In this document: positions 53,256 through 64,000 of the stretch, one piece after another
Position numbering within the stretch: the stretch's first letter is position 1
Layout of the letters: each line of letters starts with the position of its first letter
Origin: Escherichia phage vB_Eco_Jura
Direction: 5' to 3' (one strand)
Sequence record: LR999871
DNA length: 64,000 nt
The notes under the pieces: model-generated
What the model saw: only the letters and a program-made list of their open reading frames with translations
Database searches by the model: none
What the model was told of the DNA's origin: nothing
Position numbers and translations under genes: made by a program

Positions 53256-53284
53256 TTGCCTCCTACATGGAGGCAATTTTTTTG
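53256..53284 (+). terminator. Rho-independent terminator
   Basis: TTGCCTCC-tacat-GGAGGCAA followed by T8. Confidence 0.65.
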
Positions 53285-53307: not shown

Positions 53308-53541
53308 ATGGCTAAACCACGTAAATTCCGTATTAAGGATAAGCCTGTAATGGGTAGTGCTGCTGGTCAGTCACATGAGAAAGGAGACATTGTTTATGAA
53401 TGCCTTCAGTATGATTACGGCGTTGCTCATGATGACACTCGTGCTACTGGTGTCCCACATACCTCAGTAACTCTTGAGGAAGATGGTAGTTACCCATTCT
53501 TCACTGTTCCTACTCATAACCTGGAAGAAATTCATGATTGA
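53308..53541 (+). CDS. Hypothetical protein, 77 aa
   Basis: Start MAKPRKF with GGAGG RBS. Confidence 0.45.
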   Translation: MAKPRKFRIKDKPVMGSAAGQSHEKGDIVYECLQYDYGVAHDDTRATGVPHTSVTLEEDGSYPFFTVPTHNLEEIHD

Positions 53542-53860
53542 CCCAAATATCATCCATGCCAAAACAGGCGAATCCCATAAGCTGTCTGAATATTCCAAAG
53601 TAGAAGATATTGCAGTTTGTCCTGCAAATATTGCTTCTCTTTGTATCTGTATTGCAGAGCTATCTAAAGAACGCCAACTATGGTTATCTCCTAATAAAAC
53701 AATGGTTCAGGCAGGTCTGGCAGAAGTACAACGTATGCTGGATGAATGGTCTGAAGACCAGATGTTCATTGATGGCAATGCAGAAGCAATAACCGATGAC
53801 ATGGCCTCTGATATGGCTGTGTTTGTATTACAAGCAATGGCTGAAAAGCGTAGTAGTTAA
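53534..53860 (+). CDS. Hypothetical protein, 108 aa
   Basis: Start MIDPNIIHAK overlapping previous stop. Confidence 0.5.
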   Translation: MIDPNIIHAKTGESHKLSEYSKVEDIAVCPANIASLCICIAELSKERQLWLSPNKTMVQAGLAEVQRMLDEWSEDQMFIDGNAEAITDDMASDMAVFVLQAMAEKRSS

Positions 53861-53885: not shown

Positions 53886-56411
53886 ATGCAAGTAGCTGAC
53901 TCTACTGAACTGACCACATCAGCAACGTTGGGTGCTCAAGATGCTATGGCCTTCGGTATTTCTGAAGACCCAGCATTCTTCCAAATACTCAGTGCTAACC
54001 TCTATTCTAATCAGAAACTGGCAATGGTACGTGAGACATTGTGCAATAGCTGGGATGCTCATATTGAGGGGAATAAAACAGATATTCCTATTCGTGTAAC
54101 CATTGATAAAGATGGTTTTCTTATCTTCCGTGACTATGGTTCTGGTATTCCTAAAGATAAGATTCAAGAAGTCTATGGGGTATATGGTGCATCTACCAAG
54201 AAAGCTAATACTGCTTCCACTGGTGGCTTTGGCTTAGGATGTAAATCCCCTATGGCCTATACAGACAGTTTTACTGTCACATCTATGTGTGACGGAACCA
54301 AGACTGTTTATCACATTGCTAAATCTTCTGTTGAGACTAACGGTAAACCAGGGATTATTCCTATCGTTAGCGTACCTACTGAAGAATCAGGGCTTGAAGT
54401 TAAAATTCAGCTTCAGTCAGAAGATATTTTAGAAATTGATTCATACATTCGAGCCATTGTATTACATGGTGAGATTAAATGTATTTACTGCAATCAGTAT
54501 ACAGGACCAAATACAGTAGAATTACTGCCTGTACTGGGTATGTCTTTTGAACCAGGTAGCTATAACCTAGACCATAGCACATGGCATAAATATTACATGG
54601 GCAGTCATTCAATATTTATCCGTTATGGTAATGTTATGTACCCTGCTTTGGATACCCCTGCTACACATGAAGCATTAAAACTGGTTAAACAGTTTATGCA
54701 GGTTATTAACTGTAGCCGTATCGTTGTTCAAGCTGCCCCATCATCACTAGCTGTAGCACCTAGCCGTGAAACACTGTCATCTCAAAAAATGACCGAAGAC
54801 GGTATCGTAAATTTGGCTGTAGCTTTAGTAGATAAAATGGAAGCAGATATTAAAGCTCGTCTTCCAAATGCTATTGAATATATTGGAAAAGCTATTAAAG
54901 AATATAGCCCTCACCGTTTTGAGGTAAATAGTTATTTGCCTTACACCAATTTAGTGCCTGATGTTATTGTCAGTCGTTATATGTCCTCTACTTTATTCAG
55001 TAAGCAATATGCTCACCTGTGTAAGAAATGGGGGAATATGGAGATTGACCGTCAACTTGAACATCCTGCACTGGCTCATTTCTCTGGTTCTCAAAAAGCC
55101 CATCTCCGTAAGCATTTAAAGAGGGCTAAGGATTTACGTAATTACAGGGAATTAACTAAAGTATTTACTGATATGGCTATTAAGCCGATGTTCAAAACCT
55201 TTGCTAAATTAGGGATTACTAAAGGTATTTCTCTATTTCACTATCAATATGGTGTTGAACTGTGGCGTAATAATATTGTTAATAGTGTCCGTAGAATACA
55301 CTCATTAAACTTCATGACTTATAGTTCTAAGAAGTGCCGTGTATTTGTTACCCCACGTATTACCAATATTGAAGATAGTCTGGTTGGGTATCCAGAGTTT
55401 GATAATCTTTCTACTGAGACACTGGTGAAATATAACTCAATCATTGTCAAAGTTGGAACCAAGAAAGGTGAAGCAGAAGCTATGACTAATCTGCTCACTA
55501 AAGCAGGATACGAAGTCATTAATATGGCTGAATATCATGAGTGGGATTGTATAGCTCGTAGACGTAAAGAGGAACAAGAGGCTAAATTAGCCATTTCCAA
55601 ATTACAAGCTAAGAAAGCTACTAATAAGAAAAAGGTTAGTCCTAATCGTCTTATTAGTATGAATATCCTTGAAATACCAAAAGAGCATCGTAGCTATTCG
55701 AGTGAAGTATGTGGTTCTCACTACGCTTCTCGTTCTCATGACCGAATGGTTGATGTAGATACTCCCCAGTATTACATCATACAGGAAGATATTAATAACT
55801 ACACAGGAAGACTTGGTGTTCTTTCTATGTGGCAATTAACCCCTGCTACCATTAAAGATGTGACTGTTGTTTGTCGTAATAAAATTGAACGTAATAAAGC
55901 TATTAAGCGAGGTGCTGTTCATTTGGATGAATGGACTGCTCCGTATATTGCTTCAGTTCTTACATCCAAACAATTCATTAAGTATGTCACTAAAGAACGT
56001 CAGAAAACGTTAAGTGATATTGGTATTTACTCCAAACACCTCAGATTACTGAGAAAACTAGATATTACATATGCCCCATTGAAAGGTCTGCGTTATGACC
56101 CAGAACTGGAGAATGCTTATCTCTTCTTACAAAGTAGTAGCTACCCTAAGCTACGTGCATTGTTAGGGAAGGGTCTGATTACTGAAGAAGAGTATCACTT
56201 CCTCAGTGATGTTGATGTGCATTGCAAGACTTTCAGTAAGTACTCGGAACTTCGTAGGATACCGAAGATGTTCCTTGATATTGATGCTGGGGGTTATATG
56301 TTGGCTGCATGTACTGTAGACACATTGCTTCGTGAAATCGAACAATTCCCTGAATCAATCCCTGCAATCAAACTGCTTGTAAAAGCTGCTCTTAAACGGA
56401 ATACAGACTGA
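53886..56411 (+). CDS. rIIA: rIIA-like protein with N-terminal GHKL (histidine kinase-type) ATPase domain, 841 aa
   Basis: Bergerat N-box ETLCNSWDA and G1 box FRDYGSGIP; size and pairing fit rIIA-like proteins. Confidence 0.55.
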   Translation: MQVADSTELTTSATLGAQDAMAFGISEDPAFFQILSANLYSNQKLAMVRETLCNSWDAHIEGNKTDIPIRVTIDKDGFLIFRDYGSGIPKDKIQEVYGVYGASTKKANTASTGGFGLGCKSPMAYTDSFTVTSMCDGTKTVYHIAKSSVETNGKPGIIPIVSVPTEESGLEVKIQLQSEDILEIDSYIRAIVLHGEIKCIYCNQYTGPNTVELLPVLGMSFEPGSYNLDHSTWHKYYMGSHSIFIRYGNVMYPALDTPATHEALKLVKQFMQVINCSRIVVQAAPSSLAVAPSRETLSSQKMTEDGIVNLAVALVDKMEADIKARLPNAIEYIGKAIKEYSPHRFEVNSYLPYTNLVPDVIVSRYMSSTLFSKQYAHLCKKWGNMEIDRQLEHPALAHFSGSQKAHLRKHLKRAKDLRNYRELTKVFTDMAIKPMFKTFAKLGITKGISLFHYQYGVELWRNNIVNSVRRIHSLNFMTYSSKKCRVFVTPRITNIEDSLVGYPEFDNLSTETLVKYNSIIVKVGTKKGEAEAMTNLLTKAGYEVINMAEYHEWDCIARRRKEEQEAKLAISKLQAKKATNKKKVSPNRLISMNILEIPKEHRSYSSEVCGSHYASRSHDRMVDVDTPQYYIIQEDINNYTGRLGVLSMWQLTPATIKDVTVVCRNKIERNKAIKRGAVHLDEWTAPYIASVLTSKQFIKYVTKERQKTLSDIGIYSKHLRLLRKLDITYAPLKGLRYDPELENAYLFLQSSSYPKLRALLGKGLITEEEYHFLSDVDVHCKTFSKYSELRRIPKMFLDIDAGGYMLAACTVDTLLREIEQFPESIPAIKLLVKAALKRNTD

Positions 56412-58501
56412 TGAAACGAAATTATCTCGCCATTATTGCCCTGTCAGTAGACAGCCGTAACCTCACCTTATGGCAACCAGATGGTTCTACTATGGTCATC
56501 CCCCAAGGGGATGCCCGTGTACCACGTATTGTTGCTGAAGCAAAAGAAAAGAATCTTACCCCAGGTAAGATTATCGAAGTGGATGTCACTATCGAAGCTC
56601 AGATTCGTCAGGAGTTTCTGGACGCTGAACGTGATACAGGTGGCTTTGTTAAATTCTTCCGTATTACTAAGAAGAAGCTACAAGAGTTCTTCTTAGGAGA
56701 AGAGGAAGAACAAGTCCCTCATGTATCACCTGTAGAGTTAGGTGCTAAACCAACTGCTTTCAATGCTTTTATTGCTAATGCTGTGGGCAAAACTCTTGCT
56801 GTACAACATGCATCATTAAAAGCACCTGAACCAGAAATGACAGTTACTCATGAGCGTTTTTACGGTAACTATGCTGTATGGATTACAGATGTAGACCCAC
56901 GGAATCATCGTATTGAGGTTATTCATGTTATCCGTGAAATCTCAGGAAGAACCAGTGAATATGTCAATAACCTGCTGGCTCAACCAACCCCATTCAAAGT
57001 ATTTGATTGGCTCACAGAGACTCAGGCTAAAGAGTTTGTAAGACGTTTGAATAACACTCAGGGTGTTATCTCTGTCTATAACAAACTGGAAGACGGTATT
57101 CCTGCTAAGGTTGCTGTAAAGGCCACAGAGCCAACCAATAAGGAAAAGCTAGAAGCTGCATCAACTAAGCTGAAAGCTATGGGTGCTGTCGCTACTGATG
57201 CTTATGAGTTTCATACTGACTTGAATGAGAATGAAGAGACTATCGTAGCTGTAGTGAATGATAAGGTGGTTCCTGATGTTCAGAACCTACACCGTCACAT
57301 CCGTCAATCTGCAAACCTGAAAGACTATAAAGGCTTTACTAAGTTCCTTGAACGTCTGTCTACTGTAATTGATAAACGTCGTCACTCTGTTGAAGACCTG
57401 ATGAAGTTTATGGAAAAAGGTGACCTGCCAATTGCAGATGATGGCTCCATTGTTATCTTCAAACGTCTGGAAAGCAAAGACAATCCTGAACATCTCAAAG
57501 ACGTAATGGATGATGTATTTGTTGATTGCCATTCTAAGAAGATTGAGCAATGCGTTGGTATGCGTGTAATGGTTAAAGAAAACCTTGTAGACCAGAACCG
57601 TCGTAAAGACTGTTCTCATGGTTTGCACGTAGCTTCTCTGCAATACATTCGTAATTTCTCAGGCAACGTAACCATTATTGGTAAAGTTGCTCCAGAGGAT
57701 GTATTTGCAGTACCAGAATACGATGTTACTAAGATGCGTGTATCTGCTTATCACATCATTACCAAGCTACCTGATGCTATTCGTGACCATGTTAATAATG
57801 GCAATCCAATCTCCACCATTGAGGGTGGTACGGAAATCCTGAACATGGTTCTCAGTGGTAATCACCCCGAACCTTCCCGTCAGGTGCTGGTTGGTGGTCA
57901 TTATGGAACCAATCTGACTTATTCAGAACTCACCCGTAATTATCTGGATGATGATGAAGACAGCGTTATTCCAGATGAACCGGTAATTAAGAAAACTGCC
58001 TTGAATATGGAAGAGAGCTTTACGGCAACTAATCCTAAAGCTGAACCAGTGAAGGCAACGGATGTTAAACCTATTAAGAAGACTAAGATGGAAATTCTTA
58101 AAGACCTTTGGAACCAGTTCCTGAAAGCAGAGACTTCTAATGAAGCTATTACACTGGCTGATGAAATCATTGCTGCTAAGGGCAAATGTAAGAAGTCATG
58201 GGCTTCTTTAGGCTTCAGTGGTGACATGGTTCAGAAACTGATTGATGCTCGTGCTAATAAGCCTAAGCCAGAAAAAGCAGTCAAACAGGATAAAACTGTT
58301 GCACCTAAGAAAACTACAGTCACTCGTAGTCGGAATGCTGATGTTATTCGTAGTTATCTGAATGACGAGGGTATGTCTGATTACTGTAAAGCTCATGCCA
58401 TTCACGATGTGAAACGTGCTGCTAAGAAATCTTATGCTGCACTGGGTCTGACTCCTGAAGAATGCAGCCAAATTGATAAACTGAAGCATCACCTGAAGTA
58501 A
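56411..58501 (+). CDS. rIIB: rIIB-like protein (partner of rIIA-like), 696 aa
   Basis: Start overlaps rIIA stop (ATGA); assignment by pairing and size only. Confidence 0.4.
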   Translation: MKRNYLAIIALSVDSRNLTLWQPDGSTMVIPQGDARVPRIVAEAKEKNLTPGKIIEVDVTIEAQIRQEFLDAERDTGGFVKFFRITKKKLQEFFLGEEEEQVPHVSPVELGAKPTAFNAFIANAVGKTLAVQHASLKAPEPEMTVTHERFYGNYAVWITDVDPRNHRIEVIHVIREISGRTSEYVNNLLAQPTPFKVFDWLTETQAKEFVRRLNNTQGVISVYNKLEDGIPAKVAVKATEPTNKEKLEAASTKLKAMGAVATDAYEFHTDLNENEETIVAVVNDKVVPDVQNLHRHIRQSANLKDYKGFTKFLERLSTVIDKRRHSVEDLMKFMEKGDLPIADDGSIVIFKRLESKDNPEHLKDVMDDVFVDCHSKKIEQCVGMRVMVKENLVDQNRRKDCSHGLHVASLQYIRNFSGNVTIIGKVAPEDVFAVPEYDVTKMRVSAYHIITKLPDAIRDHVNNGNPISTIEGGTEILNMVLSGNHPEPSRQVLVGGHYGTNLTYSELTRNYLDDDEDSVIPDEPVIKKTALNMEESFTATNPKAEPVKATDVKPIKKTKMEILKDLWNQFLKAETSNEAITLADEIIAAKGKCKKSWASLGFSGDMVQKLIDARANKPKPEKAVKQDKTVAPKKTTVTRSRNADVIRSYLNDEGMSDYCKAHAIHDVKRAAKKSYAALGLTPEECSQIDKLKHHLK

Positions 58502-58568
58502 GTAGGTTAACTATTCAAGTAGCTCCGGTTGAAATATACTGGAGCTATCTTTGAAGAGGATACATACT

Positions 58569-58964
58569 ATGGCCAAAGTTTATCGTGCTAACCGTAAAGC
58601 CCATGATGACGATATTATTCGTATGAATGCAGTCGGTTTATCATTGGGAACCATTGCTAAAACACTAGGTGTTCACCCCACTACAGTTACCTTACGATTA
58701 CGCTCTCTTGGTATTGAACCAGCCGACACACGTCGAACATTTATGGAGAACGTATTAGCACCATTACCTACTCACGTAGCTGATTGGTTATCGGAACAAG
58801 TAGGACCAAAGTATGAGATTCGACAATACGTTCGAGACTTATTACTGGAAGCCTACAATAATCGTCATAATCATAAGGAAACTGCCCATGAACGATTCCT
58901 CAAAAGATACGTTGGTACAAACTCAGAACTGGTTTCTGAAGGCAGTACCCAACCCAACGAGTAA
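58569..58964 (+). CDS. Helix-turn-helix DNA-binding protein, 131 aa
   Basis: HTH-like LSLGTIAKTLGVHPTTVTLRLRSLG; start MAKVYRA with GAAGAGGA RBS. Confidence 0.5.
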   Translation: MAKVYRANRKAHDDDIIRMNAVGLSLGTIAKTLGVHPTTVTLRLRSLGIEPADTRRTFMENVLAPLPTHVADWLSEQVGPKYEIRQYVRDLLLEAYNNRHNHKETAHERFLKRYVGTNSELVSEGSTQPNE

Positions 58965-61246: not shown

Positions 61247-63211
61247 ATGCGTCACATTACATTCAACAATGAGGGTATCTACCCTATTGCTATCCTTACT
61301 ACAACGTTACGTAAGGATGATATTGTCAAAGCATACATGGAACCCTGGGATGTAGATAAAGATTCAGTAATGATTCTTGAACTTCATACAGCCCCAGGGA
61401 AAAAGAAAACTCCTGCTAAAGAGATGCAGGAGTTTATTACCCAAGAATTAGTGCCAGCATTCGAAGCAGCACAAACTCAGTATATCATCTGTGGTGATTC
61501 TGAATATTACAAACAGCTAACCAAACAAGGTAAAGCTGATGCCAATATTGGCTATGTAATGGATTGTGCTTATGGGAACCAGAAAGTTATTTACGTTCCC
61601 AATTACAGACAAATCTTTTATGACCCGGATAAGGTAAAGACTAAGATTGCTTTATCTATGCAGGCTCTGATTGATTATGTCTCTGGTTCTTATGTTGAGC
61701 CAGGAACTAAGATTATCCACTATGCTGATTATCCATTAACTCCAGAAGCTATATCTAAGTGGTTAGATAAGTTACTGGAGATGAATGTTCCGTTAGCAGT
61801 GGATATAGAAACTTTCAGTCTGAAGCATTATGACTGTGGTATAGGCACTATTACATTCTGTTGGAACAAGCATGAAGGGATAGCATTCCCTGTGGATTAT
61901 GAACCAATTGAGGGGGCTACTGAAGCTCCTTATGGTAGACAAGTTCACAACATGCTTGTTCGTTCTATGCTCAGGGACTTTTTTATTAAGTATCTGAACA
62001 GGCAGATGTATCACAATATTGCCTTTGACGTATATGCACTCATTTACCAGTTATTTATGACAGACCTTCTGGATACGGAAGGGTTGTTGCATGGCATGAG
62101 TATCATGCTAAGAAACTGGGATTGCACTAAGTTAATTACCTATCTGGCCACTAATTCTTGTGCTGGTAATAAGCTAAGTCTTAAAGACCAGGCTCAGGAA
62201 TATGCTGGTAACTATGCTCAAGAAGAAATCAATGACATTACCAGAATCCCATTAGCAGAGTTGTTGGAATACAACTTAGTGGATGGATTATGTACCTGGT
62301 ATGTCTATGAAAAGCATTGGGATACTCTGGTTAATGACCAACAGTTAGATGTTTATACAAACATCTTTAAACCTGCATGTGAAGATATTATTCAAATGCA
62401 GTTAACTGGTATGCCTATCAATATGAAGACAGTATTGGAGGTAGAAGAAGCATTAACCCAAGACTATAACAATGCGTTAAAAACGATTGCTGACAGTAAA
62501 GTAATCAAAGATTTTACCCGTCTTCTTAATGAAGAATGGGTAGAAAAACAGAACCAGATTCTGAAGAAGAAACGAGTAACTTTAGCTGATGCTAAAGAGC
62601 AGTTTAATCCAAACTCAGGTGTTCAATTACAGAAGCTACTTTTTGAGTTCCTGGAGTTACCTGTGCTGGGTCTGACTGCAAGTAAACTACCCGCTACTGG
62701 TAGTGGCATACTCAAGTCTTTGAAGAACCATACTCAAGATGCCAGTATTCTGGAAATTCTTGATGCTCTGATTGATTACAAAGCTGTAGATAAAATTCTG
62801 ACAGCATTTATTCCAGCATTAAAAAATGCCAGACAAGGACCAGATGGTTGGCATTATCTCTTTGGTAATCTGAACTTAGGTGGGACTGTATCAGGTCGTC
62901 TATCCAGTAGTGAACCAAACCTACAGAACCTACCTTCTGGTTCCAGATATGCCAAGATGATTAAGAAATGCTTTGAGGCTCCCCCTGGGTGGATATTCTG
63001 TGGGCTAGACTTTGCTTCTCTCGAAGACCGTATATCTGCTTTAACAACCAAAGACCCTAACAAGCTGAAGGTGTACATGGGTGTGACTGTTTATACAGTT
63101 ACTATAGAAGGAGTTGACCATCATATCCGAGATGATGATACAATCGTTTATGATGGTAAAACTTATACCGGTGAGGAGTTCTATGACGCTTTTACCCGTG
63201 GCCTTCTATGA
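61247..63211 (+). CDS. DNA polymerase (family A), N-terminal part: 3-prime-5-prime exonuclease domain through motif A
   Basis: Exo motif LAVDIETFS; Pol A motif A LDFASLEDRI near C-terminus; ORF stops at 63211 before motif B; start MRHITF with GAGGT RBS. Confidence 0.8.
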   Translation: MRHITFNNEGIYPIAILTTTLRKDDIVKAYMEPWDVDKDSVMILELHTAPGKKKTPAKEMQEFITQELVPAFEAAQTQYIICGDSEYYKQLTKQGKADANIGYVMDCAYGNQKVIYVPNYRQIFYDPDKVKTKIALSMQALIDYVSGSYVEPGTKIIHYADYPLTPEAISKWLDKLLEMNVPLAVDIETFSLKHYDCGIGTITFCWNKHEGIAFPVDYEPIEGATEAPYGRQVHNMLVRSMLRDFFIKYLNRQMYHNIAFDVYALIYQLFMTDLLDTEGLLHGMSIMLRNWDCTKLITYLATNSCAGNKLSLKDQAQEYAGNYAQEEINDITRIPLAELLEYNLVDGLCTWYVYEKHWDTLVNDQQLDVYTNIFKPACEDIIQMQLTGMPINMKTVLEVEEALTQDYNNALKTIADSKVIKDFTRLLNEEWVEKQNQILKKKRVTLADAKEQFNPNSGVQLQKLLFEFLELPVLGLTASKLPATGSGILKSLKNHTQDASILEILDALIDYKAVDKILTAFIPALKNARQGPDGWHYLFGNLNLGGTVSGRLSSSEPNLQNLPSGSRYAKMIKKCFEAPPGWIFCGLDFASLEDRISALTTKDPNKLKVYMGVTVYTVTIEGVDHHIRDDDTIVYDGKTYTGEEFYDAFTRGLL

Positions 63212-63728
63212 ACAACGGTATAAGATTTCCGATGAAGGTTTCATCTTAAATCTTGCAAACAATCAACCCCTAAAACCGACTCTCAATCCTAACGGATACC
63301 TTAAGGTTGGGTTAGCTAATGGGGATGGTACACATCACCAAGAGCTACTTCATATTCTGGTAGCTAAACACTTCATCCCTAATCCTTATGGCTATGAACA
63401 GGTGAACCATAAAGATGGTAATAAACTGCATTGTCATAAGGATAATCTGGAATGGTGCTCTGCTACTCAGAATGTTGAACATGCACTTAAAACAAGGCTA
63501 CGTCCTGGTTACATGTCTGCTGACGATAAAGAAAAGTATCTCTTTGAGGTGCTGGCGGGTAAGCAAGTTAAAGACATTGCTTTTGAAATAGGTAGACGTC
63601 CTGAAACTTTGCATAAGATGCTCAGAACTACTGCTGACCGACTTGGTGTTCGAAATGAGTGGGATGATGTTATGAGGAGAAATAGAAAAGATGTTGCTTT
63701 ACGACAGCTTGCCAAAATCAACTCATGA
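63183..63728 (+). CDS. HNH homing endonuclease interrupting the DNA polymerase gene
   Basis: YEQRYKISDEGFILNL N-terminus and VNHKDGNKLHCHKDNLEWCSATQN HNH motif; GAGGAG RBS before ATG 63183 (track ORF extends to 63114). Confidence 0.8.
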   Translation: MTLLPVAFYEQRYKISDEGFILNLANNQPLKPTLNPNGYLKVGLANGDGTHHQELLHILVAKHFIPNPYGYEQVNHKDGNKLHCHKDNLEWCSATQNVEHALKTRLRPGYMSADDKEKYLFEVLAGKQVKDIAFEIGRRPETLHKMLRTTADRLGVRNEWDDVMRRNRKDVALRQLAKINS

Positions 63729-64000
63729 CTTCACTGGCAAGAAAATTGACAACGTAGTCAAAGCCGGGAGTTCATCAGGTTACGATGGGCATAGTCTTCG
63801 TGCATATGCTTACTTCGGTGAGATGATGCCCGACATTAAAGATACGGTAGAGTCTGTTAATTCTATTCAGGAGAAGTACAAAGCATATCGTCAGGATTCT
63901 AAAGCACCTACCTTTGCTCTTACCTATCAGGGTACGTACATCACTTTGATGAAGAACTGTGGTTTCCCTGAACAGAAAGCTCGAATGGTTGAGGAACGTT
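63691..64000 (+). CDS. DNA polymerase (family A), C-terminal part beginning before motif B (partial, runs off window)
   Basis: Frame open from 63676 to window end; DGHSLRAYAYFGE and motif B RQDSKAPTFALTYQG; possible ATG 63691 with GAGGAG 11 nt upstream. Confidence 0.7.
   Translation, partial: MLLYDSLPKSTHDFTGKKIDNVVKAGSSSGYDGHSLRAYAYFGEMMPDIKDTVESVNSIQEKYKAYRQDSKAPTFALTYQGTYITLMKNCGFPEQKARMVEER

Follow-up and report, generated by a model that had tools for sequence, protein, structure and literature searches.

The rIIA-rIIB gene pair of the N4-type coliphage vB_Eco_Jura: domain organisation and a probable role in counter-defence against RexAB

The window, i.e. the whole stretch of 64,000 nucleotides from Escherichia phage vB_Eco_Jura (sequence record LR999871), belongs to an Enquatrovirus and is 99.5% identical to vB_Eco_SPSP/AL25 and 98% identical to N4. 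Two genes of this window are described here. They lie in the same orientation with rIIA directly 5' of rIIB, an order also found in T4 and N4:

53886..56411, + strand: rIIA gene, ATG open reading frame of 841 aa plus stop, orthologue of N4 gp33
56411..58501, + strand: rIIB gene, ATG open reading frame of 696 aa plus stop, orthologue of N4 gp34

An earlier note, made from the letters alone, had described an 841-aa open reading frame with an overlapping 696-aa partner, and we found the coordinates and lengths exactly as given there. The rIIA stop and the rIIB start share one nucleotide (...GAC TGATG AAA...), the last A of the stop codon doubling as the A of the rIIB ATG at position 56411. A 1-nt overlap is typical of translational coupling and, judged from this arrangement, the two genes are probably translationally coupled. 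In N4 the same gene pair is known as gp33/gp34 (NC_008720, 15460-20075), with the same lengths of 841 and 696 aa, the same 1-nt overlap and the same neighbours (gp31 and gp32 upstream; gp35, gp36 and the helicase downstream). The identity to N4 is 98.0% at the nucleotide and 99% at the amino acid level. We counted 44 nucleotide differences but only 8 amino acid changes between rIIA and gp33, and 49 nucleotide differences but only 6 amino acid changes between rIIB and gp34. None of these substitutions falls in the GHKL motifs or in the invariant rIIB core residues described below. The small number of amino acid changes per nucleotide difference in both genes points to strong purifying selection and thus to real genes rather than chance reading frames.

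The pair is set in a block of nucleotide-metabolism and replication genes: dCTP deaminase and thymidylate synthase precede it, and helicase and DNA polymerase follow. Its immediate surroundings contain the following features:

53256..53283, + strand: terminator-like hairpin with a T7 run, upstream of the four-gene block (terminator scan; corresponding AL25 terminator annotation)
53308-53541: gp31-like gene, within the four-gene block
53534-53860: gp32-like gene, within the four-gene block
58514..58555, + strand: stem-loop 13 nt past the rIIB stop, followed by TCTTT (RNA fold)

The upstream hairpin bounds a block of four genes (gp31-like, gp32-like, rIIA and rIIB), which are presumably co-transcribed. 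The downstream hairpin has a folding energy of -24.4 kcal/mol (z=-4.76 vs shuffles) and probably marks where the transcription unit ends on its 3' side. The records of vB_Eco_SPSP and vB_Eco_AL25 (98-99.5% identical) list terminator features within their match to 53886-58501; the AL25 terminators whose positions were examined correspond to an inverted repeat inside rIIB at 56552-56572 and not to the hairpin at 58514..58555.

The earlier note had assigned the pair to rIIA/rIIB on the basis of motifs, sizes and pairing, and had proposed a comparison with the T4 proteins. We carried out this comparison and the assignment is now supported by homology. Among the PHROGs, rIIA matches phrog_2979 'RIIA' with E=7e-263 over aa 1-837 and rIIB matches phrog_2886 'RIIB' over its full length with E=1.3e-201. 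Both proteins also match the families of their T4 counterparts, rIIA phrog_612 (E=2.7e-65) and rIIB phrog_609 (E=1.9e-29), and reciprocally T4's own rIIA and rIIB match the same PHROGs. A direct BLASTP comparison gave E=7e-25 with 27% identity over 331 alignment columns for rIIA (aa 6-323) and E=6e-16 with 27% identity over 158 columns for rIIB, so similarity to T4 rIIA and rIIB is clearly detectable. Furthermore, profiles of the N4-type families recover T4 rIIA at E=5.7e-37 and T4 rIIB at E=4.1e-21. We also considered rIIA as a member of the MutL, Hsp90 or TopoVI-B families and rejected this, as the likeness is at the superfamily level only. The NCBIfam scores were 30.5 bits vs a cut-off of 274 and 24.7 vs 380.7 for TopoVI-B, and 23.9 vs 455 bits for HSP90, and the PDB sequence matches reach only E~0.03; the matches are confined to aa ~33-190. 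The rIIA/rIIB annotations are already present on N4 gp33/gp34 and on every close relative; the pair is known in N4-type phages, and its identification here is correct but ordinary and not a discovery.

We divided rIIA into the following parts:

53943..54470, + strand: GHKL (Bergerat-fold) ATPase domain, aa ~20-195 (motifs, AF2 fold)
54033-54056, + strand: motif I, ExxxNxxD, aa 50-57
54132-54146, + strand: motif II, DxGxG, aa 83-87
54222-54239, + strand: motif III, GGFGLG, aa 113-118, in the low-pLDDT 'ATP lid'
54471..54860, + strand: second domain, aa ~196-325, in the position of the GHKL 'transducer' (T4 homology to aa 323)
54756-54770, + strand: APSRE loop, aa 291-295, within the second domain
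54861..56408, + strand: C-terminal region, aa 326-841, mostly helical and poorly conserved

The two Bergerat motifs named earlier are present, ETLCNSWDA at aa 50-58 and DYGSGIP at aa 83-89, and GGFGLG at aa 113-118 adds a third. E50, N54, D57, D83, G85, G87 and G113-G118 are invariant in 37 homologues with 33-56% identity to the query. The AF2 model has a pLDDT of 83, with low confidence for the lid (aa 107-116), and a Foldseek search of the PDB with this model returned 505 matches at E<=1e-3, among them Hsp90, TRAP1, HtpG and MutL at E~1e-10 to 1e-8. At the sequence level the matches to TopoVI-B, Hsp90 and sacsin are weak, and the Pfam HATPase_c match, at 22.9 bits, falls short of the 26.4-bit threshold, so the basis of the GHKL call is the motifs together with the homology to the PHROG and T4 proteins and the predicted fold. 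In common with Hsp90/HtpG/TRAP1, the MutL N-terminal fragment and TopoVI-B, rIIA has the Bergerat fold, motifs I-III, a flexible lid and a domain in the transducer position, but it has none of the partner or C-terminal modules by which those families are defined. The model aligns with MutL LN40, which comprises GHKL plus transducer, over 355 columns (TMt 0.53). The second domain shares 'APSRE(A/T)LS' with T4 rIIA; P292, R294 and E295 are invariant in the homologue alignment, the surrounding loop (aa 289-301) has low pLDDT, and R294 is a putative gamma-phosphate sensor. BLASTP detected no significant similarity to T4 rIIA past aa 323. In this C-terminal region the column identity drops to 0.25-0.5 and the AF2 model is confident but helical, in line with the 'highly variable C-terminal domain' that a published comparison attributes to rIIA orthologues (PMC7824862). 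Sequence and model together suggest for rIIA a GHKL-type ATPase whose nucleotide-binding motifs are all intact; a transducer-like domain follows, and then a helical, lineage-specific C-terminus. T4 rIIA (725 aa) has homologous GHKL and second domains with ExxxNxxD, DxGxG, GGFGLGxKSP and APSRE in common, whereas the C-terminal ~500 aa of rIIA are unrelated in sequence between the two.

The partner rIIB is a multidomain protein built around a conserved core that is common to T4 rIIB:

56867..57088, + strand: putative bL12-CTD/ClpS-fold module, aa ~153-226, beta-alpha-alpha-beta-alpha-beta, a lineage-specific insertion
57320..57784, + strand: conserved core, aa 304-458, equivalent to T4 aa 170-312 (BLASTP, profile vs T4)
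58079..58498, + strand: pair of C-terminal three-helix repeats, aa 557-615 and 640-696, with a KK(S)W/YxxLG motif in each

The core is the only part homologous to T4 rIIB. It shares D372, H374, C401, S402, G404, L405, H406 and Y412 with the T4 protein, as well as P428, P435, K441, R443 and Y447. Conservation in alignment A1 is highest in this block, its invariant residues hold in A1 and in 101 diverse representatives, and the core family comprises 5945 cluster representatives at E<=1e-3. Two PDB fold searches with the model of the whole 696-aa protein returned no solved-structure match for the core; the significant matches were confined to the module at aa ~153-226. This bL12-C-terminal-domain-like module is the only new detail of the locus. 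T4 rIIB lacks it, as do ~90% of diverse rIIB-core proteins, and the window's own sequence of aa ~153-226 falls short of significance against the Pfam family of the bL12 CTD (PF00542). The module differs from ribosomal bL12 in being embedded in a phage protein without the bL12 N-terminal dimerisation or L10-binding domain. The C-terminal repeats are modelled as helices with pLDDT 81-90, and their motif is kept in the broad rIIB-family consensus ('KKxxKxSWxxLG ... KKxWxxLG'). The Pfam search found no HTH or other domain in these repeats and no HTH in the N4-type rIIB as a whole. The N4-type protein has more than double the length of T4 rIIB (312 aa). It lacks the HTH-like region at the N-terminus of the T4 protein, and has in addition a beta-rich N-terminal domain, the bL12-CTD-like module and the two C-terminal three-helix repeats.

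According to the earlier note the target of the pair in this host was unknown. [quoted passage not shown] 2025, PMC11879866). As the N4 genes are dispensable on Rex- hosts and needed on RexAB+ hosts, the module acts as a conditionally required counter-defence against RexAB abortive infection. RexAB has also been found not to restrict Enquatrovirus phages (PMC8594841). We thus regard it as very probable that the locus represents the rIIA-rIIB module of a coliphage of the N4 type (Enquatrovirus), orthologous to N4 gp33/gp34, and serves as such a counter-defence. The T4 and N4 pairs have the same A-then-B order and both are needed on lambda RexAB+ hosts; T4 is a myovirus and the phage studied here a schitovirus with a virion RNA polymerase. 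By analogy with other GHKL-plus-transducer proteins, rIIA may be an ATP-driven dimerising clamp in complex with rIIB, and rIIB would supply the target-binding modules. RexA is described as the sensor and RexB as the membrane effector (PMC12894663), and the two rII proteins together could block the activation of one or the other and so preserve the membrane potential. One way would be to mask or remodel phage DNA-protein intermediates, the presumed signal for RexA. No transmembrane helix is predicted for rIIA or rIIB (19-residue hydropathy at most 1.25 and 0.88, respectively), hence any membrane association must be peripheral. Since N4 rIIB has only ~155 aa in common with T4 rIIB, the partner-binding modules may differ between the two phages. 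In T-even phages rIIB also triggers gasdermin/CARD defence (PMC10312443), and RexAB may be only one of several rII targets in natural hosts.

T4 rII mutants were first isolated as rapid-lysis plaque mutants, and RefSeq and PHROG name the products 'RIIA/RIIB lysis inhibitor'. If the names were taken literally, rIIA and rIIB would be genuine lysis inhibitors that delay holin triggering and are responsible for the lysis inhibition of N4, a reading we find hardly credible. Lysis inhibition does occur in N4, but in more than 60 rapid-lysis mutants of this phage the changes lie in the pinholin gp63, the SAR endolysin gp61, gp50 and the DTR, an rII class not being reported among them, and the lysis-inhibition machinery of T4 consists of the holin T and the antiholins RI and RIII (bioRxiv 10.1101/2025.11.12.688109). 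Moreover, the two proteins have neither a transmembrane segment nor a periplasmic signal, and without RexAB the N4 knockdowns plate without defect (PMC11879866). For N4, then, 'lysis inhibitor' is a misnomer, since rapid lysis arises there from mutations in the lysis cassette, gp50 and the terminal repeats, and the rII module would not set the phage's own lysis timing.

It is also very unlikely that rIIA is a DNA-transaction GHKL enzyme of the topoisomerase, MutL or MORC kind and rIIB its DNA-binding or transcription-factor partner, the two serving N4 replication or transcription with any Rex phenotype being secondary. The fold and sequence matches of rIIA do extend to MutL, TopoVI-B and the topo II large subunit, but a Toprim, 5Y-CAP, endonuclease or DNA-gate domain is missing, the topoisomerase and Hsp90 family scores given above are far under their cut-offs, and the topo II PHROG match has an E-value of 7e-7 compared to 7e-263 for the rIIA PHROG. 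In one comparative-genomics study rIIB is termed a specific transcription factor (PMC7824862), and the T4 protein has an N-terminal HTH near threshold (HTH_7, 23.6 of 23.8 bits), whereas the N4-type rIIB has no such domain that could be detected. The location amid nucleotide-metabolism and replication genes would suit this explanation, yet the rII genes are dispensable on Rex- hosts (PMC11879866).

The locus adds little in itself, and its value lies in corrections and hypotheses. The product name 'lysis inhibitor' should not be taken as the function in N4-type phages. The domain map provides mutational targets for the rII mechanism, namely the GHKL site, the APSRE loop, the Asp/His/Cys/His set of the rIIB core and the bL12-like module. 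The C-terminal domain of bL12 recruits EF-Tu, EF-G, IF2 and RF3, and ClpS binds a ClpA-type partner. It is possible, though improbable, that the rIIB module likewise interacts with a translational GTPase or with a ClpA-type protein; if so, rII in enterobacterial phages of the N4 kind would link counter-defence of the Rex type to the machinery of translation or proteolysis and might protect against EF-Tu-targeting defences. To the separate idea that D372, H374, C401 and H406 form a catalytic or metal site we give the same low probability. These four residues are invariant from N4 to T4 and, were they catalytic or metal-binding, the 70-year-old rIIB would turn out to be an enzyme. About 1000 homologues are known for rIIA and likewise for rIIB, most of them on contigs of ~70-75 kb, and for rIIB there is a cluster, P0001, with 100% identity.

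We recovered both open reading frames exactly where the earlier note had put them, with the proposed sizes:

53886-56411, plus strand, rIIA, ATG start, 841 aa
56411-58501, plus strand, rIIB, ATG start, 696 aa

The two genes are coupled. The overlap that had been described is present and consists of the single base at 56411, which in the junction sequence GAC-TGATG-AAA belongs both to the stop codon of rIIA and to the start codon of rIIB. A Shine-Dalgarno sequence (GGAG) is located 8 nt 5' of the rIIA ATG. Compared to phage N4 we observed 8 amino acid changes among 44 nucleotide differences for rIIA and 6 among 49 for rIIB. As so few of the differences change the protein, both genes are under purifying selection. 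In neither protein is any stretch hydrophobic enough for a transmembrane helix.

To place the pair we compared both proteins with the rII proteins of T4. In PHROGs, rIIA matched phrog_2979 ('RIIA', E=7e-263) and rIIB matched phrog_2886 ('RIIB', E=1.3e-201), both end-to-end, with secondary matches to phrog_612 and phrog_609, the families that hold T4's own rII proteins. BLASTP aligned rIIA with T4 rIIA at E=7e-25 (27% identity over 331 alignment columns, N4 aa 6-323) and rIIB with T4 rIIB at E=6e-16 (27% identity over 158 columns, N4 aa 304-458 against T4 aa 170-312). An HMM built from 37 N4-type homologues recovered T4 rIIA at E=5.7e-37 and one built from 33 homologues recovered T4 rIIB at E=4.1e-21. 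Similarity to rIIA/rIIB is therefore detectable by all three approaches; the observation stands, and reading the two genes as rIIA and rIIB is supported.

The profile phrog_609 has 1055 positions and is labelled 'RIIB', and in N4-type and T4 proteins alike it is matched by the rIIA N-terminus (positions ~20-310) and by the rIIB core, the part homologous to T4 rIIB (positions ~750-1049). This double match hints at either natural rIIA-rIIB fusion proteins or a clustering artefact. Among the best 120-150 matches of three homologue searches there was no such fusion, the longest proteins having 875 and 759 aa. Resemblance of the pair to a known defence system was also considered and rejected, because PADLOC returned just a weak GHKL-level match of rIIA to TmtA (E=4.6e-5) and none for rIIB.

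A megablast search with the 4.6-kb region matched 15 Escherichia phages at 98.0-99.5% identity, among them vB_Eco_SPSP and vB_Eco_AL25 (both 99.5%), N4 (98.0%), PMBT57 and AlfredRasser/Bas69. The annotated records call the genes rIIA/rIIB-like, rIIA/rIIB 'lysis inhibitor' or 'membrane integrity protector'. The N4 counterparts are gp33 and gp34, so the pair is already known: the N4 genome record annotates it, and its function was tested in 2025.

The N-terminal part of rIIA carries an intact set of GHKL motifs. Both Bergerat motifs quoted in the earlier note are present (ETLCNSWDA, aa 50-58; DYGSGIP, aa 83-89) and we add a third, GGFGLG, at aa 113-118. In the AF2 model (mean pLDDT 83) aa ~20-195 form a Bergerat-fold domain whose lid (aa 107-116), which bears motif III, is disordered; a second alpha/beta domain reaches to about aa 325 and is followed by a long helical C-terminal region. 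Foldseek against the PDB gave 505 matches at E<=1e-3, with Hsp90, HtpG, TRAP1 and GRP94 at the top (E~1e-10); the N-terminal 40-kDa fragment of MutL reached a TMt of 0.53 over 355 columns. These Hsp90- and MutL-type matches are at the superfamily level only. The NCBIfam TopoVI-B and HSP90 models scored 24-31 bits against cut-offs of 274-455, Pfam HATPase_c stayed just below threshold, and NCBIfam and PDB sequence searches gave weak GHKL superfamily matches only; the PDB holds no deposited rII structure. In homologues with 33-56% identity, E50, N54, D57, D83, G85, G87, G113-G118 and K120 are invariant, as are P292, R294 and E295 of an APSRE loop that is common to T4. Judged from this conservation, rIIA is probably an active ATPase, and by analogy the APSRE arginine may act as the gamma-phosphate sensor, as the Lys/Arg of the transducer domain does in other GHKL enzymes. 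Past aa ~325 conservation is low and nothing resembles T4 rIIA, in line with the published account of rIIA orthologues as 'GHKL ATPase plus highly variable C-terminal domain' (PMC7824862).

For rIIB the AF2 model (mean pLDDT 70) consists of five confident pieces joined by low-confidence linkers:

aa 1-95, beta-rich N-terminal domain
aa ~153-226, module with the order beta-alpha-alpha-beta-alpha-beta
aa ~300-510, conserved core
aa 557-615, three-helix repeat with a KK(S)W/YxxLG motif
aa 640-696, three-helix repeat with a KK(S)W/YxxLG motif

Pfam gave nothing meaningful for rIIB itself, and its homologues carry PF26926 as a precomputed tag. The core is the best-conserved block and the sole part common to T4. 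With aa 296-512 as query, a search of all 1.84 billion cluster representatives gave 5945 proteins at E<=1e-3; these range from 317 to 759 aa in length and their flanks vary greatly. Within the core (57320-57784) the residues D372, H374, C401 and H406 show little or no variation between N4-like phages and T4 and across 101 diverse representatives, a pattern that resembles that of a catalytic or metal-binding site. No solved structure matched the core domain in PDB fold searches with the whole rIIB model. We had considered the C-terminal KKSWxxLG repeats as an equivalent of the N-terminal HTH of T4 rIIB and dropped this reading, because no HTH came up in Pfam at E<=10 and the loop between the modelled helices is ~10 residues long.

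The module at aa 153-226 is predicted to have the ribosomal bL12 C-terminal-domain/ClpS fold. Foldseek matched the modelled piece to bL12 C-terminal domains with a TMt of 0.82-0.86, and a 64%-identical homologue passed the Pfam Ribosomal_L12 threshold (29.2 vs 25.9 bits). With manually entered target sequences, hhalign gave 86% for bL12 (E=5e-6) compared to only 0.7% for ClpS. The module is lineage-specific: just 9 of the 101 diverse rIIB-core proteins have a detectable copy. Searching the literature for phage rIIB and L12 matched only Fc-gamma-RIIB immunology papers. The residual novelty lies in this module and in the invariant Asp/His/Cys/His set of the core; for neither did we find any discussion in the literature that could be searched. 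Each offers a testable lead into the long-unsolved mechanism of rII.

The target of such pairs, which the earlier note had left as unknown, has been identified in this genus as RexAB, the exclusion system of the lambda prophage. In the BASEL study, which noted the rIIAB locus of Enquatrovirus, N4 and Bas69 proved insensitive to RexAB (PMC8594841). Knockdown of RIIA or RIIB in T4, MM02, EdH4, SUSP1 and N4 left plating on Rex- E. coli unaffected in all cases and lowered the EOP on lambda RexAB+ cells in all cases (Adler et al. 2025, PMC11879866). Because this holds for N4, the target is known for the genus and the published need for the pair is conditional on RexAB+ hosts. RexA is viewed as a sensor that binds DNA and switches on RexB, a membrane protein (PMC12894663). 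In the mechanism that we infer, rIIA would be an ATP-driven dimerising clamp acting with rIIB, binding of the relevant partner, from host or phage, would fall to the variable modules of rIIB, and the joint action would block RexA/RexB activation and keep the membrane potential. The rIIB of T6 triggers a gasdermin/CARD defence and is toxic if expressed alone (PMC10312443).

Two other roles were weighed against this protection from RexAB. A true control of lysis timing would fit the 'lysis inhibitor' label, but the label is not supported for N4, as the changes in more than 60 rapid-lysis mutants lie in gp63 (pinholin), gp61 (SAR endolysin), gp50 and the terminal repeats (bioRxiv 10.1101/2025.11.12.688109), and we regard this role as extremely improbable. 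The pair could also be a GHKL enzyme of replication or transcription with a transcription-factor partner. The N-terminal region of T4 rIIB nearly reaches several HTH models, whereas N4-type rIIB has no detectable HTH, and we consider this role very unlikely. Protection from RexAB remains our preferred reading.

The surroundings correspond to the N4 middle-gene block, with dCTP deaminase, thymidylate synthase, gp31 and gp32 on the 5' side and gp35, an NTP pyrophosphohydrolase-like gene, helicase and DNA polymerase on the 3' side. Two hairpins flank the gp31-like and gp32-like genes, rIIA and rIIB:

53256-53283, terminator-like hairpin with a T7 run, from the terminator scan
58514-58555, strong hairpin, dG -24.4 kcal/mol, z=-4.8

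We infer that these four genes are co-transcribed. N4 middle genes are read by the phage RNA polymerase II, and a sigma-70 promoter scan, which found fewer sites than in shuffled sequence (8 vs 20.8), is therefore uninformative. Inside rIIB (codons 48-54, 56552-56572) there is a perfect 9-bp inverted repeat with a 3-nt loop (AATCTTACC-CCA-GGTAAGATT), which is labelled 'terminator' in vB_Eco_AL25 despite its place in coding sequence. A rough calculation (64,000 x 4^-9 per loop length) predicts that chance alone would give about one repeat of this kind in 64 kb, and beyond the genus the peptide that it encodes lacks conservation.

Just 3' of rIIB, the gp35-like gene (58569-58964, plus strand) encodes 131 aa with sub-threshold HTH matches at aa 16-46 (HTH_38, 18.8 bits; HTH_23, 17.7 bits) and may be a small DNA-binding regulator beside the rII block. 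Further downstream the DNA polymerase gene, starting at ~61247, contains a ~702-bp insertion relative to N4 gp39 (63076-63777), with flanks 97.9% and 98.2% identical to N4 and 7 bp of N4 replaced. It carries an ORF (63114-63728, plus strand) for a 204-aa HNH_3 and NUMOD4 homing endonuclease, and vB_Eco_AL25 is annotated with a split DNA polymerase. As Rfam found no group I or II intron at E<=1, the insertion may be either a free-standing endonuclease splitting the polymerase gene or an unrecognised intron. At the other end, a tRNA cluster at 212-890 on the plus strand (Asn-GTT, Ser-TGA, Thr-TGT and Pro-TGG) was found by both ARAGORN and Rfam.
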